A DNA stretch of 64,000 bases from an uncultured virus (IMG/VR IMGVR_UViG_3300030503_000396). Lineage: Duplodnaviria; Heunggongvirae; Uroviricota; Caudoviricetes. How positions within the stretch are numbered: position 1 is the first letter of the stretch; the number at the start of each line of letters is the position of its first letter. Positions 31,052-38,139 of the stretch are shown here, in pieces. The position numbers were made by a program, and so were the translations under genes. The stretch is taken from the IMG/VR virus record IMGVR_UViG_3300030503_000396. One strand, written 5' to 3'. The notes under the pieces are model-generated. The model saw only the letters and a list, made by a program, of their open reading frames with translations, did no database searches and was not told the origin of the DNA.

Positions 31052-32544
31052 TGGGTGTAGGAAATCTTCATATAGGCGAAAATATTGGGGGCGCACAAAT
31101 ATTCCCTCAATCTCCCGGTGTACAACAATTCGCTAATATCGTAGCTACGCAAAAAGCGAAGCGTGATGCAGATAATAAGTACCTTAACGACACACTCGCC
31201 TCATTCGACCCGACAGGCTTACGTAACGATGCGGACAGGCAGGATGCGTATAAACAATATTCCGATTGGAAACAACAGGCTATTGATGCGGAGAACGAAC
31301 GTGATCCACGTAAAAAGGCTATGGCAATTGCGCAGGTTAGGGACGGGATAGGAAGGTTAAATGCTTTTGTTGGGCAGAGTAAGAAACAGGGGCAATTAGA
31401 GCAATCTATTGGTTTAGACCTGATGAAAAATAGGCATAATTATTCTGATGACAGCATTGATAAGTATAAACAAAGTGTACAGTCGGGTATCAATAGCGGA
31501 AGCGTGATTACATCCCCCCTTGATATTGAGCGAAAAGTTGATCCAGATAAAATGGATGCTGATTATAAAAAGTTCAAAGAAAGCGTTATCGCACCAACAC
31601 AATGGGACAATGGCAAACTTGTAGGTACACAAAATCTACCTGATGGACGTTCGGTATATCATACCGAACAGAATCGTGGCGTACTTATGGACGGAGAAAA
31701 TGGGGCATTTCATAATATGCTAAATTACACATCTGCCCATGATGACTTTAAAAAAGGTCTACAAGATAGATACCCGCAATTGCAAGGCAATAGCGAAGCC
31801 GAAACGAATGCGATGCGTGTCAGGCAGTATATGACCGATATGGGGGATAGTAAAGGCTTTCAGGATAAACCCAAACCGGGAAGTTATGAAAGTCCTGCAC
31901 CGGAAAGACCTGTTAGACCGTCATTTGATGATATACAGTACCATAACAAATATGGCACATGGCCTGTAAAAACAGATACAAGCCAACCAACACCTGCACA
32001 GCAGTTGATACAAAATATGCAAACAGGGCAGGCTGGTAGCGGAGAGAAGTTGTTGGATTTAGCCCCTAAAGGACAATACGGGACTAATAAACCACATATA
32101 ACTATTGACCCTAACACAGGTGAACATGTATTTAGTTTCCCTGCCCATATAGACCAAAAAGCGGTTGCTGAAAATGCTGATAAAAAAGCAAAATGGGCTA
32201 AAGAAAATCCGGGTGAGCCTTATGATGAAAATGACGGCGGTAAATTAAAACCTGAAACCATTGCACCTGCTAAAGTTTATAAAATAAATCCGGCAGGCAA
32301 TGACTACGCAGCACAAACAGCGCAAATGGCGGCAGAACAAAATATTAATTTGGATAGGTTGAATAAGATTGAAAAGGGACAGCAGGGAAATGTGAAACCT
32401 GCTAAACAATCACAACACACCGAACAGCAACAAAGCGGCACAAAGATAAATTTCAAGACAAAAGACGGAAGGATATTCGCTATACCATTTAACAGGCAAA
32501 GGGAGTTTAGACAACAATTTCCTGATGCACAAATACAACAATAA
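31051..32544 (+). CDS. Internal virion/ejection protein
   Basis: Position and composition. Confidence 0.6.
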   Translation: MGVGNLHIGENIGGAQIFPQSPGVQQFANIVATQKAKRDADNKYLNDTLASFDPTGLRNDADRQDAYKQYSDWKQQAIDAENERDPRKKAMAIAQVRDGIGRLNAFVGQSKKQGQLEQSIGLDLMKNRHNYSDDSIDKYKQSVQSGINSGSVITSPLDIERKVDPDKMDADYKKFKESVIAPTQWDNGKLVGTQNLPDGRSVYHTEQNRGVLMDGENGAFHNMLNYTSAHDDFKKGLQDRYPQLQGNSEAETNAMRVRQYMTDMGDSKGFQDKPKPGSYESPAPERPVRPSFDDIQYHNKYGTWPVKTDTSQPTPAQQLIQNMQTGQAGSGEKLLDLAPKGQYGTNKPHITIDPNTGEHVFSFPAHIDQKAVAENADKKAKWAKENPGEPYDENDGGKLKPETIAPAKVYKINPAGNDYAAQTAQMAAEQNINLDRLNKIEKGQQGNVKPAKQSQHTEQQQSGTKINFKTKDGRIFAIPFNRQREFRQQFPDAQIQQ

Positions 32545-34625
32545 TGCCACAAGACGATTGGAGTCAATACGAAGTAAAAACACCTGCTAAAACTGCACCA
32601 CAGCAGAATGATTGGGATCAGTATGAGGTAAAAAAAAAAGCTTCTACACCCGTTTTACCATCTACGCCTCCCTCATCCATCAATGGCTTAAACAATTTCC
32701 AAAATTTCCCCCCGCTTACTAATTCCCCTGTTACCGACCCAAAGGAGCGAGGTAGGTTAAACGAACAGGATAACGCCTATGCGCAAGCTCAACAGCAGCA
32801 CAGGGATGAACTATCGGCACGTTTAGATGAAAATATAAATCAACTCAACCCGGAGGCTAAAGCAGCTATGCAAAAGGCAAAGGATATTATTGCCCCATCA
32901 GCCGAAATATTTCAAACTCCCAAAGATGTAGAAGACCATTATAAGTTCATGCAAACACCGATGGGTAAAACGTTAGGCACCGTAGCTTATTTGGGAAGCA
33001 AGGCAACCAAAGGCTCATTAGATGTTTTAAAGGGTGCTGCACATTTAGCTAATTTAGCTACTAATCCATCAGGGGCAATAACAGGCTTCGACCCAACAAA
33101 AGATACGTTTGACAAACTTGATAAATTAGCTAATTACGGGCTAACGCAGGCCGATCAGGATAGGATGGAGAAAGGTACGGGTGGGCGCATATTGTCTACC
33201 GCAGGCATGATGGCAGAATTTGCCCCGGCTGTTGCAGGTGGTGAAGCCGCAGATGCGCCAAAAGCTATGATGTATTTGCAAGGTTTGGGTCAGGGTAGTG
33301 ATTTGGCTAATAAACTTAACATATCCAATCCTGTTGCCAAAGAAGCATTAATACAAGGGTCAGGTGTGGTAAACCTACTATTAACGGATGTTTTTAACGG
33401 GGCTAAGGTACCAAATGCAGCAAAATCGACCATTGTGTCAGGAATAGCGGCAGATGCCTTAAAAGATGCGGCGGGGAAGGATATGGAAGTGGGTGCTTTT
33501 AAATCGCTGCTATCAGGTAAGGCGCAAGAGTTCGCCCAAAAGTTTGAACAAGCGCCTATTGAGGCTATGTCACATCACCTTGAAACAGCGAAGACTTTTA
33601 CTAAACTAAATGTAGCTAACTTCGGATTGCATAAAGCAGTTGATGCTTTGAACGACAAGCCCGTATTCAATGAGAATATAGGCGACCTTGCAAGTGGTGA
33701 AATGAAAGCATTAACACAAGATGCACCAATATTTTCTGCTTTGCCCGCTATTGGCGCATTAAGTAAACTATTTCCAAATTCAGGTTATAAAAACGATGTG
33801 GCTGAATCATTAATGAATGACCCATCGGAAAAGAATGTTTCAGACCTTAAGCAAAAACTAACCAAACACGCTCAACAAAATGAGTGGACACCTGAACAAA
33901 CGGATGCTACGTTAAAACATGTTGATGCTATTGCGGATGCAGCGAAAACATTGCCACGCAATATTGCACCCGATAAAAAAGCAGATGCGGTTGATTTGGT
34001 AATGAACCGAAACGACTTACAGGATAGGTTGGCTAAGGTGCAGGCTCAAAAAGAAACCCTCGACCCATCCCTCGCAGACCTGCCAAACGCACAGGAAACT
34101 TATTTATCCGATAAAATCGAACAAGCAAACGATAAATTGCGTAATATTGTTACAGGAGAGCGGACTACATACTCAAAGGGAACAGGTGAAGAGGATGGTA
34201 AGTTTTTCAAAACAACGAATGGCCAGCGGGAAGAAATCGACCCGACCAGATATGAATTAGAAAATTTAGAACGTACATCAAAAACAAATCAAAATGAAAG
34301 TAAGAACACTGGGCGGGAAAGTGGACAGTCCACCGAAGCTGAAAATGAAGGTAAAACCGGGCAAACCGTCGGGGAAAATGAACCCGCAGTACAAGAAAGC
34401 GGGAGCGATGATGAAGGGCGGAAAGAGCTGAATTTAACGGGCGGTGATGAGCCGCCTGTTGTTAAACCACAAGATAATGCCATTCAAGAGCCAAAATATT
34501 CAGACCTTTTTGAAAAATCAGATCCTAAAGATTTATCAAGATTGAAGGACAATTTAAATACGGTAAATATTGAGGCTTATTTGCGTAAATTAGAAAAAAG
34601 TGGTATATTAAAGATTAATTGTTAA
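32544..34625 (+). CDS. Large internal virion/ejection protein
   Basis: DDWSQYEVK N-terminal repeat, Ala-rich helices, acidic linker. Confidence 0.65.
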   Translation: MPQDDWSQYEVKTPAKTAPQQNDWDQYEVKKKASTPVLPSTPPSSINGLNNFQNFPPLTNSPVTDPKERGRLNEQDNAYAQAQQQHRDELSARLDENINQLNPEAKAAMQKAKDIIAPSAEIFQTPKDVEDHYKFMQTPMGKTLGTVAYLGSKATKGSLDVLKGAAHLANLATNPSGAITGFDPTKDTFDKLDKLANYGLTQADQDRMEKGTGGRILSTAGMMAEFAPAVAGGEAADAPKAMMYLQGLGQGSDLANKLNISNPVAKEALIQGSGVVNLLLTDVFNGAKVPNAAKSTIVSGIAADALKDAAGKDMEVGAFKSLLSGKAQEFAQKFEQAPIEAMSHHLETAKTFTKLNVANFGLHKAVDALNDKPVFNENIGDLASGEMKALTQDAPIFSALPAIGALSKLFPNSGYKNDVAESLMNDPSEKNVSDLKQKLTKHAQQNEWTPEQTDATLKHVDAIADAAKTLPRNIAPDKKADAVDLVMNRNDLQDRLAKVQAQKETLDPSLADLPNAQETYLSDKIEQANDKLRNIVTGERTTYSKGTGEEDGKFFKTTNGQREEIDPTRYELENLERTSKTNQNESKNTGRESGQSTEAENEGKTGQTVGENEPAVQESGSDDEGRKELNLTGGDEPPVVKPQDNAIQEPKYSDLFEKSDPKDLSRLKDNLNTVNIEAYLRKLEKSGILKINC
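34294..34431 (+). CDS. Nested +1-frame 45-aa basic protein
   Basis: MKVRTLGGKVDSPPKLKMKVKPGKPSGKMNPQYKKAGAMMKGGKS, preceded by AAAAACAAATCAAA. Confidence 0.55.
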   Translation: MKVRTLGGKVDSPPKLKMKVKPGKPSGKMNPQYKKAGAMMKGGKS

Positions 34626-34627
34626 AA

Positions 34628-35353
34628 ATGTATTTCGTATATAGGCATATTAGACTTGATAAAAATGAACCATTTTATATAGGAATTGGCACAAGACGCT
34701 TTAGGAATAGTTTTGAACAAGATTATCAAAGGGCTTTTAAAAAATCACAACGTACAAGCCGATGGATAAATATTATAAATAAAACTCAATATCGAGTTGA
34801 TATATTAATAGAGAGTGATAATTTGGAGTTGATTTTTCTGAAAGAAAAAGAATTTATAGAACTGTATGGTCGGTCGGATTTAACTAAAGGAACTTTAGTT
34901 AATTTAACAGATGGTGGCGATGGTGGGTTTAATATGGGCACTGAACAAAAAACGGCTATTTCTAATAAAATGATTGGAAATAAAAACGCAGTCGGTTATA
35001 TAGTAACTAACGAACAAAAAAAGATTGTTAGCGAAAGATTTACAGGGAATACAACTTGGAAAGGGCGTAAGCATAAGAATGCTTCCAAATTGCTAATATC
35101 AGAAGCAAAGAAAAATGTTCCACTATCAAAATCTCATAGGGAAAACACTTATAACACAAAGCCACATTCAAAACAAGTGCTTTGTATAAACAATAACATA
35201 AAATATAATTCTATATGCGAATGTGTTCGCCAATTATTTAATTGCCACGAACTGGCGATTCATAAAACATTCAGAAATTATAAACACCAAATTAGTTTTA
35301 TTTGCAATAATAAAAAGGAAAGTTATAAAGGGTATAATTTTAAATTTGTATGA
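34628..35353 (+). CDS. Free-standing GIY-YIG-like homing endonuclease with NUMOD domains
   Basis: YFVYRHIRLDKNEPFYIGIG, EKEFIELYGR, LVNLTDGGDG, KGRKH, KQVLCIN...YNSI...YKGYNFKF; AT-rich. Confidence 0.85.
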   Translation: MYFVYRHIRLDKNEPFYIGIGTRRFRNSFEQDYQRAFKKSQRTSRWINIINKTQYRVDILIESDNLELIFLKEKEFIELYGRSDLTKGTLVNLTDGGDGGFNMGTEQKTAISNKMIGNKNAVGYIVTNEQKKIVSERFTGNTTWKGRKHKNASKLLISEAKKNVPLSKSHRENTYNTKPHSKQVLCINNNIKYNSICECVRQLFNCHELAIHKTFRNYKHQISFICNNKKESYKGYNFKFV

Positions 35354-38139
35354 GTTGCACCGTAAAATATGCAGGTGAGGAAATACCTAAAGAAAAGTTC
35401 ATAAAGGATTTAATATCTAATTTGGATTTATCTGATGAACAGGAAAAAAATAATCAAAAATATCTTAAATCAATAGATTATGCCTTTCAAAAGTCGAGCG
35501 CAGAGAGTCTACCTGTACAGCCAAAAGCCGAAGATAGCGAAGGAGTTTCAAAAGGAAACTCCGAAAGGGAAGAAACTGCCAGTACGGGTGAAGAAAAAGA
35601 AGAAAGACTAACGGGCATCCGAAATGCCGATGTAGCGGAAGAACGGGATGCAAACATAGCCCGTGAACGTAAATCATTTGCCGATATTGACAAAGAGGGC
35701 AAGCGCATGGTTGATAGCGGTGAAACAGACCCTAACGACCTCGCAAAAGATATTATTTCAGGTAAGAAAAAATCCGTAACCGCAGAAGACGAGGCGGCTT
35801 TGCTATATCATAAAACACGGTTGAATAACAGACAAAATGCTATATTAAACGATACCGACCCAACACATAACGCCGAAAATCAAGCCGAATACTCACGTAA
35901 CGAAGACCTACTTGAACAGAACCGAAAGGCTACTGAATTAGCGGGTAATGTTGCAGGGCGGTCATTGGCATACAGGCGACAACTGATGAAATCAGATTAT
36001 TCACTTGCTACACTACTTCGCCGTGCCAAATTATTCAATGGTGGGGAAGATGTAGATGAAGCGACTAAATCCAAATTAGCCGAACACTCAAAACGCATTG
36101 CCAACCTTGAAAATCAACTTGCCGACCGAGAGGAACAAATACGTAAGCTATCTGATAAAAATACCATATCAGAGGTTAAGCGAAATGCCGAATTTGAGGA
36201 TAGGAGAGCCAAGCGAACCACCACCAAAGCATCACTACGTAAAGAACGGGAAGATTTGGTTGCCGAATTGCATACAATCGCACGTAATAGCCTAAAGACG
36301 GCAGGGGCTAATAAGATACCCATTGAGATGTTGCCAACACTTGCTAAGCTCGCCCGTAACTACGTTATGGATGGCGCTGTAAGCATTGCGCAGGTAGCCG
36401 ATAAAATATATAATGAACATTTTAAAGATAAATACGACGGCATACACAGGGACGATGTAGAGGATGCTATTAAAAACGAATTTGATAAGTACCTGCATGA
36501 AAAGAACTTCGAACGGCTTTCCTCAGCAAAGAAACGGCAGGAAACGAAACTTGCCGACCTGAAATCGGGCAACTATGAGAAAAAGGTTTACTCCAAAATA
36601 CAGGTTGATAATGACTACCTGCATATTCGTGCAGAGATAAACAGGGAACAGGCGAAGTTGAATAAGCGGATGGAAGATATTGCCAACTCTAAAAAGGGGG
36701 CTGCTTCAAAAATAGGCAACCTTATTGTAAAATATGGCAGACAGGCAAAGTTGGCATCTGTTACTGTGATTGGTAAATTGGGTCTTGCTGGACTTACAAC
36801 AGCTGGGTTAGAGCCAGTTCAAGAGGGTGTAGGTTGGGGATTTAGCAAGGTATTTAAGAAAATAGCTGATAAATCTTCCTATGAAGGCTCTGTATCTCGA
36901 AAAGAAAATAAGGCAGCAAATGAAATAACAGAGGGCAAATCTGTAAAGAATTTTACCCAAGCCTATGCGAGGGCGGCTACACAAGGGATGAAAGATGCTT
37001 ATGATGAAATTCGTTCATCAAAAGGAAAACAATCAGACATATCCGCATTGTATGGAAAAAATGGCAAACTTCCCGCAGAGGCAGCCGAATTTTTTGGACA
37101 TATCCACTCTGCTATTAAAGCGCCTGTTAAGCGATTTATTTGGGAAAAGTCATACGCCAAAAGACTGGCTAAGGGCATACAGGCTGGCGTGGACATCACA
37201 GACCCTATCATTGATGCAAGATATAGACTGGATGCTTATAAAGATGCGGAAAAGGCTATTTTTATGGGCGACAACCATTTATCAAACGCCTATGAACAAT
37301 CGGTTAAATATTTAGAAACGAGAGATAACCCATACTCTAAGTTTGTTGGAGGGTTGGCGAGGGTTCTATTCCCATTTGTTAAGGTTCCATCAAATATAGC
37401 AGCAGAAACTTTAAGATACTCATTTGGGTTAACAGCAGGGTTAGCCAAAGTCGGGCGCGTATATGCCTCATCGGCTCTAAAAGAAGCAGGTGCTATTAAA
37501 TTAGCGAAATTCATGCATAAGGGTATGGGCGAATTAAGTCCCGACGAGGCTGATATAGTCCTAAAAAATTTAAAACGGGGGAGCGTAGGGGGAGCGGCTT
37601 TAGCGATTGGATTTTTTGCTCCACCTAAAAATATTGGCGGCTATTATCAAAAAGGATATAAAGAAAGCAAGAGCAAAGCTAATCCTGACCAATTCATGAT
37701 AGGAGATGCTAAAATACCTATATGGATGACAGAGCATCCCGTTTTTCAAGCTATGCAAATTGGTGCTACATTTAGGAAATTATTAGATAAAAATTTGAAC
37801 AAGGATGATAGGTTTGAAAGCGCATTTTTAGGGACAGCAAGTGGGGTATCTGAAAACATACCATTAGCAGAAGGCGCTAAACAAATATCAGATGCATTAT
37901 TAAGTGGAAGATCAACTGCTTTTAATAAGTATGTTGGCGATGTTGTAAAAGGGGAAGTAACCCCATCTTTTTTAAATCAGCTTGCAGAGGTTACAGATAC
38001 TAAAAATGGCAGTCCTATAACATTCAGACCCATGAACCAAAATACCCGAAAACCAAATAACAAACAAGGTTTAGGCAAATACCTTAAAGAAGATTTGGAA
38101 ACCGGCGTACCGGGATTAAGGGAGAAAGTGAGCAAATGA
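35350..38139 (+). CDS. Large internal virion/ejection protein
   Basis: 929 aa helical protein; LFPFVKVPSNI motif typical of large ejection proteins. Confidence 0.7.
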   Translation: MSCTVKYAGEEIPKEKFIKDLISNLDLSDEQEKNNQKYLKSIDYAFQKSSAESLPVQPKAEDSEGVSKGNSEREETASTGEEKEERLTGIRNADVAEERDANIARERKSFADIDKEGKRMVDSGETDPNDLAKDIISGKKKSVTAEDEAALLYHKTRLNNRQNAILNDTDPTHNAENQAEYSRNEDLLEQNRKATELAGNVAGRSLAYRRQLMKSDYSLATLLRRAKLFNGGEDVDEATKSKLAEHSKRIANLENQLADREEQIRKLSDKNTISEVKRNAEFEDRRAKRTTTKASLRKEREDLVAELHTIARNSLKTAGANKIPIEMLPTLAKLARNYVMDGAVSIAQVADKIYNEHFKDKYDGIHRDDVEDAIKNEFDKYLHEKNFERLSSAKKRQETKLADLKSGNYEKKVYSKIQVDNDYLHIRAEINREQAKLNKRMEDIANSKKGAASKIGNLIVKYGRQAKLASVTVIGKLGLAGLTTAGLEPVQEGVGWGFSKVFKKIADKSSYEGSVSRKENKAANEITEGKSVKNFTQAYARAATQGMKDAYDEIRSSKGKQSDISALYGKNGKLPAEAAEFFGHIHSAIKAPVKRFIWEKSYAKRLAKGIQAGVDITDPIIDARYRLDAYKDAEKAIFMGDNHLSNAYEQSVKYLETRDNPYSKFVGGLARVLFPFVKVPSNIAAETLRYSFGLTAGLAKVGRVYASSALKEAGAIKLAKFMHKGMGELSPDEADIVLKNLKRGSVGGAALAIGFFAPPKNIGGYYQKGYKESKSKANPDQFMIGDAKIPIWMTEHPVFQAMQIGATFRKLLDKNLNKDDRFESAFLGTASGVSENIPLAEGAKQISDALLSGRSTAFNKYVGDVVKGEVTPSFLNQLAEVTDTKNGSPITFRPMNQNTRKPNNKQGLGKYLKEDLETGVPGLREKVSK
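35480..35611 (+). CDS. Nested +1-frame 43-aa basic protein of the MPFKS type
   Basis: MPFKSRAQRVYLYSQKPKIAKEFQKETPKGKKLPVRVKKKKKD; resembles small phage proteins of pattern MPFKSxAQR...P.AKEF..TP..K.LP. Confidence 0.75.
   Translation: MPFKSRAQRVYLYSQKPKIAKEFQKETPKGKKLPVRVKKKKKD

Follow-up and report, generated by a model that had tools for sequence, protein, structure and literature searches.

Nested genes are textbook features of small phages, and the Rz/Rz1 pair of phage lambda provides a well-defined case in which a short gene lies wholly within a longer gene of the same strand, in the +1 frame. Two other described systems bear on the locus presented here. T4-type capsid targeting sequences are short (~10 amino acids, aa) N-terminal modules on internal head proteins, and the 'genes in pieces' associated with homing endonucleases are exemplified by the split nrdA gene of Aeromonas phage Aeh1. 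Here we describe a 43-codon open reading frame (ORF) embedded in the +1 frame of a 929-aa ORF in DNA from an uncultured Caudoviricetes virus (IMG/VR record IMGVR_UViG_3300030503_000396); the whole stretch that was analysed, 64,000 nucleotides (nt) in length, is referred to as the window. With a probability of roughly 0.8, we take the small ORF to be a real protein-coding gene that belongs to a large, unnamed family of 35–60-aa phage proteins and is nested in the linker of a split virion-module gene.

As in Rz/Rz1, the small gene lies fully inside a longer gene on the same strand and at a +1 offset, and both would be translated from one message. The differences from Rz/Rz1 are that the nested gene here appears to be the older and more widespread partner, that the host reading is a derived low-complexity linker, and that the cassette recurs in at least 13 host contexts that are not linked by BLAST, with no functional link known between the two products. 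The arrangement is one of same-strand nested genes and so of a known kind; what is uncommon is that it recurs in many unrelated hosts, that the nested partner is the older one, and that both frames are constrained. No description of the family or of the arrangement was found in the literature at abstract level, subscription journals lying outside the coverage.

The small ORF runs from an ATG at 35480 to a TAA at 35609–35611 in the frame one base downstream (+1) of that of the 929-aa ORF, and its product is MPFKSRAQRVYLYSQKPKIAKEFQKETPKGKKLPVRVKKKKKD, the tail of which is encoded by the A-rich run AAG AAA AAG AAG AAA. Across the same interval the host frame is read as the acidic linker YAFQKSSAESLPVQPKAEDSEGVSKGNSEREETASTGEEKEERL. 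The coordinates, the 43-aa ORF and the acidic reading given by the original prediction, a note made from the letters of the DNA before the present analysis, were all recovered as described. The length of the ORF is within chance, since nine same-strand, alternative-frame ATG-initiated ORFs of at least 43 aa occur in the 19,002 nt of long genes in the window. The case consequently rests on homology and on comparative evidence.

A search of 5.77 billion proteins with the 43-aa peptide gave 39 matches among 40 candidates (best expect value, E, 1.9e-12), the matched small proteins being 40–64 aa long and 55–83% identical to the query. In a 40-sequence alignment of the family (A1), residues M1, P2, F3, K4, S5, Q8, P17, A20 and L33 are invariant and T27, P28, K29, P34 and K39 are nearly so, and every one of them is present in the window peptide. 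The peptide also fits the wider family profile, which consists of an N-terminal MPF(K)S..Q, P17, A20, an aromatic residue at position 23, TPKG..LP and a basic tail within a total of 35–60 aa, and it has its own start at the aligned Met and its own stop after the basic tail. The pattern given with the original prediction, MPFKSxAQR...PxxAKEF...TPxGKxLP, agrees with the consensus of the family recovered here. Stand-alone homologues, the search for which had been proposed as a check, proved abundant both among proteins and in tblastn searches of viral and metagenome contigs; pattern scans followed by tblastn confirmed at least 382 relatives in viral contigs and at least 305 in metagenome contigs. 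Within the window itself, the peptide is the only full family copy among 1760 six-frame segments scored with a family hidden Markov model (HMM; 89 bits), the model having been built with the window's own sequence included.

The only library match of the peptide is to phrog_1375 (PHROGs v4, no known function; E 0.0015, residues 3–36), and neither Pfam nor NCBIfam yielded a match for the peptide or for family members. The match to phrog_1375 is weak; the family carries no annotation, and most of the members found here are unannotated. In the ESM Atlas the peptide falls among unnamed clusters of 40–43-aa proteins (score 0.95–0.96), the nearest named cluster (score 0.85) carrying DUF3008 on 15% of its members. 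DUF3008 presumably has a similar MPxKSxxQ start; membership of Pfam DUF3008 (PF11450) was rejected, as hmmscan of the peptide and of all 40 A1 members returned no match at E up to 1. A PDB profile search with A1 returned the designed propellers 'Cake' and 'Bagel' at E 1e-9, which is an artefact of about nine repeats contributing about 3 bits each. Among cultured phages, tblastn of the window peptide gave nothing at E 1e-3; relaxing the threshold to E 10 and adding another family member as query brought up stand-alone copies only. Synechococcus phage S-CBS2 (L082, 6001–6111) and phage C75C1 (L083, 5001–5105) carry unannotated stand-alone members of 35–36 aa, and the stand-alone copy of Streptomyces phage FlowerPower is gene 48, annotated 'hypothetical protein'. 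The copies in S-CBS2 and C75C1 sit in unannotated gaps, alongside other small, very basic ORFs.

The genomic setting of the family was analysed at 160 loci, 80 drawn from the viral relatives (sample 1) and 80 from the metagenome relatives (sample 2); over 150 nt around the small gene, no locus of sample 2 is identical to any locus of sample 1. Nesting was measured as the distance over which the frame beginning one base ahead of the small ATG, the host-type frame of the window, remains open. Fifty-three of the 160 loci are nested, with an offset of +1 in every case, and at 35 the small gene lies in a giant ORF that is open for 470 codons or more in both directions. At the 101 stand-alone loci, stops close the host-type frame. 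Sample 1 contains 47 closed loci, 18 within a giant ORF, nine near the 5' end of a longer ORF (in addition to the window) and six with a short open stretch; the corresponding figures for sample 2 are 54, 17 and three, the remainder being four loci in a mid-size ORF and two open to the end of the contig. A start codon occupies the aligned position at all 160 loci (158 ATG, two GTG). The codon for Phe3 is TTC in 28/28 nested copies of sample 1 and TTT in 30 of the 47 stand-alone copies, and a TTT at this position produces TAA in the host-type frame. Stand-alone genes thus close the second frame, which makes conservation of the small frame independent of any host gene.

Selection was assessed with Nei-Gojobori counts over codons 2–27 for all pairs of unique sequences. 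For nested copies, the ratio of nonsynonymous to synonymous differences per site (pN/pS) in the small frame is 0.39 in sample 1 (27 unique sequences; corresponding to a dN/dS of ~0.20) and 0.28 in sample 2 (25 unique sequences), against 1.44 and 1.64, respectively, in the host frame. Stand-alone copies give small-frame values of 0.35 (47 unique sequences, sample 1) and 0.27 (53, sample 2). Differences per site amount to 0.43–0.62 at small-frame third positions versus 0.20–0.24 at second positions, and the amino-acid replacements are conservative. As far as such counts can tell, these values show the small frame to be under purifying selection in the nested relatives. The only close sequence to the window (L081/L084) is identical to it, and the selection signal therefore comes from those relatives.

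Since nesting might be recent and repeated, we compared pairs of loci with full-length homologous giant hosts, in which nesting is older than the split between the two. In 19 of 24 such pairs, host-frame synonymous differences per site (pS) in the overlap (first 36 codons) fall in the lowest 1.7% or less of equal-sized segments. Examples are L047/L058, with a pS of 0.037 in the overlap versus 0.70 outside it, L039/L045 (0.039 versus 0.55) and L144/L188 (0.056 versus 0.52), the last with a pN that is higher in the overlap (0.186) than outside (0.103). The comparison of homologous host genes that had been recommended with the original prediction thus came out in its favour: the homologues retain the ATG and stop of the +1 frame, and synonymous change in the host frame is suppressed. 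Taken with the homology and the selection on the small frame, this supports the proposal of a real gene nested inside the large one.

Codon usage differs between the two forms at loci of similar mean G+C (0.40–0.44 versus 0.45). Nested copies have 4% T and 49% G at third positions, compared with 20% and 33% in stand-alone copies, and encode Lys as AAG in 72% of cases rather than 50%. In the host-frame reading, Asp and Glu together make up 24.5% of residues in nested copies and 13.8% in stand-alone ones, and Lys and Arg together 7.9% and 15.5%. The comparison shows reciprocal constraint, in which the small protein sets the first and second codon positions and the host picks, among synonymous codons, those that yield a stop-free, acidic linker. 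The idea that the linker was shaped by the nested gene is accordingly upheld by both the pN/pS and the codon-usage comparisons, with the addition that the constraint acts both ways.

In the window, two canonical host-frame starts precede the small gene, 35350 (ATG) and 35422 (TTG), and the next lies at 35707. A conserved host-frame module (Table 1) begins with T88, the codon of which starts at 35611, the base on which the small gene's TAA ends. Because there is no host-frame ATG, GTG or TTG between 35422 and 35707, the conserved stretch T88–K118 can be made only by reading across the entire small gene. This shows, on the evidence of the available start codons, that full nesting is real and not an artefact of a long 5' extension. 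A long ORF that is obligatorily read through a short one, the hallmark of a same-strand nested pair, is found in the window and also at the 35 giant-ORF loci.

The nested gene would be expressed by ribosomes that initiate independently at its ATG, inside the host message, and terminate at its own TAA; a separate set of ribosomes would read the host frame straight through it. Historically, the small gene would be the older partner, and large neighbours would repeatedly have come to read through it in the -1 register; in that register Lys codons (AAG AAx) would be read as Glu (GAA), giving an acidic, stop-free linker. De novo overprinting, in which the nested frame would be the younger, was rejected: stand-alone homologues are found in hosts and contexts that are unrelated, and what the host frame encodes over the small gene is not conserved as protein (pN/pS >1), for which reasons the nested gene is placed as the older. 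A Shine-Dalgarno match of 6–8 nt was found at -18 to -4 of the nested ATG, within the host ORF, at 5 of the 18 giant-ORF loci of sample 1, whereas 0.43 loci are expected from all positions of the same ORFs (simulated P ~2.5e-5). The 13 giant-ORF loci that have no such match, like the window, are A/T-rich ahead of the nested ATG, and starts of this kind would fit hosts that do not use Shine-Dalgarno pairing.

Several observations weigh against a functional nested gene. No Shine-Dalgarno motif precedes the nested ATG in the window or at those 13 of 18 giant-ORF loci, and tblastn searches found no nested copy in any cultured phage. Five of the 24 pairs lack a clear signal of synonymous suppression (L049/L073 ranked 0.128; L007/L023, L064/L011 and L169/L171, probably misaligned, showed none; L171/L191 has no aligned overlap codons), and the pairs were picked by hand, share loci and comprise related sequences, so that their figures are descriptive and not phylogenetically corrected. 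The functional reading draws on where the gene lies, on fusions of the domain and on charge. Of 24 viral relatives of the host gene, just three (L095, L096 and L103) have a nested copy, which occupies the equivalent site, and the five closest complete relatives (48–51% identity) have no copy anywhere in their records (0/5), in a search whose positive control recovered the copy in 5/5 handles, two of them being the same record. A decayed copy also lies ~1 kilobase (kb) upstream in the window, which shows that copies of the small gene do decay.

The carriage in 3/24 relatives and in none of the five closest indicates that the small gene is dispensable for that host-gene lineage. Part of the pattern that the original prediction had named as contrary to it, a linker kept while the small gene is broken, is therefore seen in the closest relatives; the other part, a lack of stand-alone homologues, is contradicted by their abundance. 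We read the absence from the closest relatives as probable loss of an accessory gene, and not as evidence against the gene, and the small gene is by all appearances accessory and losable. Inspection by eye of L086 and L087 revealed apparent decayed +1 remnants ~50 aa before TGIRNADV (..LFNNPKMTALEMLEK.. and ..MYNAPKMTKRQ...), which resemble the middle part of the small protein, lack its start and fall below HMM detection.

The decayed copy in the window is a relic of the 5' end of a second small gene. It forms a 29-nt imperfect direct repeat with 35465–35493 (23/29 bases in local alignment) and is the second best of the 1760 segments in the HMM search (model positions 1–12, E 0.03), and the repeat pair brackets ~1 kb that holds an endonuclease gene. 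The relic site aligns with the intact module of one host-protein relative (P0048) and with the intact nested gene of L115, whose host shares the N-terminal half of the window's host (32% identity, E 2e-51) and not the C-terminal half. The DNA of P0048 itself was not recovered, the sole match being a module-less relative (L195, on the same contig as L085). Across the nested loci, the 300-aa upstream flanks form 18 BLAST clusters and the 500-aa downstream flanks form 13, in mixed pairings: L018, L148 and L186 have the common upstream family and a different downstream one, and the reverse is true of L125 and L137. These mixed pairings suggest that halves of host genes have been exchanged at the module.

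Four other explanations were set against that of an independently translated nested gene. The window copy might be a silent relic that was captured when large neighbours fused, is untranslated and is intact only because the event was recent. We consider this improbable, even though the closest relatives of the host gene have lost the copy, L086 and L087 appear to hold decayed remnants, the window has a decayed copy of its own and its nested ATG lacks a Shine-Dalgarno motif. The window copy is full length and has every family-invariant residue, while decayed copies are easily recognised; where nesting predates the split of two loci, the small frame is conserved despite host genes at 23–81% identity; and nested and stand-alone copies share the same pN/pS. 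An alternative use of the +1 frame would be programmed frameshifting in place of independent initiation, either by host ribosomes that shift +1 into the basic tail or by ribosomes from the small ATG that slip by -1 within the Lys run and go on to translate the large C-terminal module. Such shifts would be served by the A-rich run of the tail and might account for in-frame fusions of the domain to large proteins (the 1152-aa protein of L008 and the longer proteins described below). The start codon, however, is retained at 160/160 loci, the spacing of the Shine-Dalgarno matches suits initiation, and nested tails have the same length as stand-alone ones. In-register X XXY YYZ heptamers were counted in 8/54 nested copies and, more often, in 33/101 stand-alone copies, and there is none in the window; as slippery heptamers are not enriched in nested copies, they argue against a frameshift link between the frames. 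A programmed -1 frameshift cassette, which needs an enriched in-register heptamer, was rejected on these counts, and frameshifting as a whole is very improbable.

A slimmer chance still attaches to the idea that the small gene stands alone here and that the 929-aa ORF starts downstream of it, its first 87 codons being a chance extension. The conserved host module does begin precisely at the small gene's stop, and an A/G-rich, T-poor second frame opens easily, being open at 6 of 53 non-nested loci of sample 1. A downstream start is nevertheless at odds with the near-invariant T88–K118, which precedes the next available start codon, with homologues of ORF residues 10–43 in the unsplit proteins P0042, P0047 and P0048, and with the overlap of the ATG at 35350 with the endonuclease stop. 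Least probable of the four is that the conserved element is a nucleic acid, such as an RNA structure, or a site for recombination or homing where the gene halves meet, with the +1 ORF as a by-product. Recombination of host-gene halves at this point, seen in the 18 upstream and 13 downstream clusters with their mixed pairings and in the half shared with L115, would be in keeping with such a site, as would the adjoining homing endonuclease and the 29-nt repeat. A conserved nucleic acid does not explain why change is concentrated at small-frame third positions and amino-acid replacements are conservative; in addition, stand-alone copies occur in unrelated contexts and no Rfam family matches. We therefore retain the reading of a translated gene nested in a larger one.

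AlphaFold2 run on A1 predicts helices at residues 6–15 and 17–26, followed by a disordered basic tail, with a predicted local distance difference test score (pLDDT) of 81 overall and >90 for residues 1–20. A BFVD fold search with the 43-aa model returned uncharacterised homologues only, none of which reached E 0.001. Stand-alone copies are often found in the head and packaging module, where their neighbours are terminase, portal or scaffold genes. The small gene is found between the large terminase and portal genes at L028 and L080, before or after the terminase gene at L036, L054, L055 and L037, and after the portal gene at L062 and L070; at L060 and L074 it is nested in the gene that follows the portal, which was confirmed in both. 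Other neighbours of stand-alone copies are tail fibres, HNH endonucleases and unrelated enzymes. The domain also occurs in 1283 longer proteins and occupies the extreme N-terminus of 113 of the 120 listed, with diverse sequence after it, which is the N-terminal position on diverse cargo proteins expected of a targeting module. Seven of the 120 listed have a Pfam match, including Phage_lysozyme2 (phage tail lysozyme), InPase, DUF5661 and DUF6782 (a putative metallopeptidase). In L008 (4001–7459), the domain is the in-frame N-terminus of the 1152-aa protein.

In being a short conserved N-terminal module on many unrelated proteins (113 of the 120 listed), the domain resembles the T4-type capsid targeting sequences. 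It differs from those ~10-aa sequences in that it is ~35 aa long, is predicted to be folded and also exists as a free mini-protein. The functional reading that we prefer, though tentatively, is that the hairpin serves at the N-terminus to dock virion-internal proteins in the head or to target them there, in which case the only 'cargo' of the stand-alone form would be its polycationic tail, a potential DNA-binding segment. Such binding may be part of this targeting role or an alternative to it. The DNA-condensing or co-ejected role suggested with the original prediction is likewise no more than a candidate. A more speculative and rather unlikely extension is that the small gene and the acidic linker make up a dual-coding junction cassette, an ancient gene for a head-targeting or DNA-binding mini-protein across which giant virion 'cargo' genes have come to be read time after time. 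A free basic peptide, encoded by the same part of the message, would then accompany the synthesis of each giant protein, and the highly conserved nucleotide module would serve as a breakpoint for the exchange of halves and, here, as a landing area for an endonuclease.

If the small ORF is a nested gene as we propose, the direction of overprinting is reversed, in that the large gene overprints the small one and a conserved mini-gene lies out of frame in many non-homologous large genes. The family would be a widespread one that annotation has missed or mis-modelled, as illustrated by the two cultured phages in which it is unannotated, and its domain singles out over 1000 longer proteins as candidates for delivery by the virion. 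The cassette would also offer a simple natural system for internal out-of-frame initiation and for the assembly of giant multi-domain phage proteins.

The host gene in the window belongs to a family of large proteins. The 929-aa ORF has 1834 homologues among 1.84 billion representative proteins, the best of which (P0041–P0053; 46–63% identity) are 1440–1807 aa long and are aligned to it over their C-terminal ~850 aa. The 693-aa ORF that precedes it matches the N-terminal ~600–650 aa of 11/11 proteins (P0041–P0051) whose C-terminal parts match the 929-aa ORF. An endonuclease gene lies between the two, and its TGA overlaps the ATG of the 929-aa ORF (ATGA). A search of 34300–36000 found no intron or other Rfam family, with two sub-threshold snoRNA rows only. 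Because the gene is a single ORF in 11/11 relatives, the endonuclease lies between the pieces and no intron family is present, the window's host gene is evidently a gene in pieces, split by a GIY-YIG homing endonuclease. The window resembles the Aeh1 nrdA split in that a free-standing GIY-YIG gene interrupts a gene that relatives carry in one piece; this parallel concerns the host gene and not the nested gene. At the DNA level, the locus matches cultured phages in the endonuclease region only, with 67% identity to Flavobacterium phages.

Table 1. Positions of the small gene, its relic and the pieces of the host gene in the window.
Feature	Position	Strand	Description
Nested small gene	35480..35611	+	43 aa; predicted N-terminal two-helix hairpin and Lys-rich tail; +1 relative to host ORF
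Host ORF, 929 aa	35350..38139	+	Putative C-terminal piece of split giant virion-module gene; residues 44–87 form the acidic linker
Conserved host-frame module start (TGIRNADV...)	35611..35706	+	Near-invariant T88, N92, E98 and K118 in a second alignment (A2)
693-aa ORF	32544..34625	+	Putative N-terminal piece of the same giant gene
Free-standing GIY-YIG homing endonuclease gene	34619..35353	+	phrog_314, E 9.4e-21; between the two pieces
Relic of second small-gene 5' end	34462..34490	+	+1 frame MPFKSQ, then unrelated; host frame DNAIQEP

The two host pieces lie after tail-fibre and virion structural genes. The label of 'ejection protein' that had been attached to the host gene found no support from families or folds. 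Neither the 693-aa nor the 929-aa ORF has a Pfam or PHROG family match, and a PDB sequence-profile search gave no credible match. The AlphaFold2 model of the host C-domain is all-alpha (pLDDT 70.6), and no PDB entry reached E 0.001 in a Foldseek search with it, the template modelling (TM) scores being ~0.1.

When the window's large proteins were compared by tblastn with the first 80 loci, a single match was obtained, confined to the overlap region of L049, and the giant hosts elsewhere are thus not detectable homologues of the window's host gene. Among these other hosts, the ORFs of L011 and L023 match phrog_10089 (DarB-like) and those of L049 and L053 match phrog_32588. The giant host ORF of L023 (994–7782) has, along with its strong DarB-like PHROG matches, a sub-threshold Pfam ATLF domain (20.4 bits versus a cut-off of 27.4). 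At 30 further loci (L019, L025, L048, L056 and others in the range L120–L181; for example L025, 3718–4086), the small gene is overlapped by a conserved upstream gene of ~120 aa (starting MATLKRLEKR...), which terminates 65–137 nt within it in the same -1 register. This upstream gene has no PHROG match, and its acidic C-terminal tail is encoded by the 5' half of the small gene.

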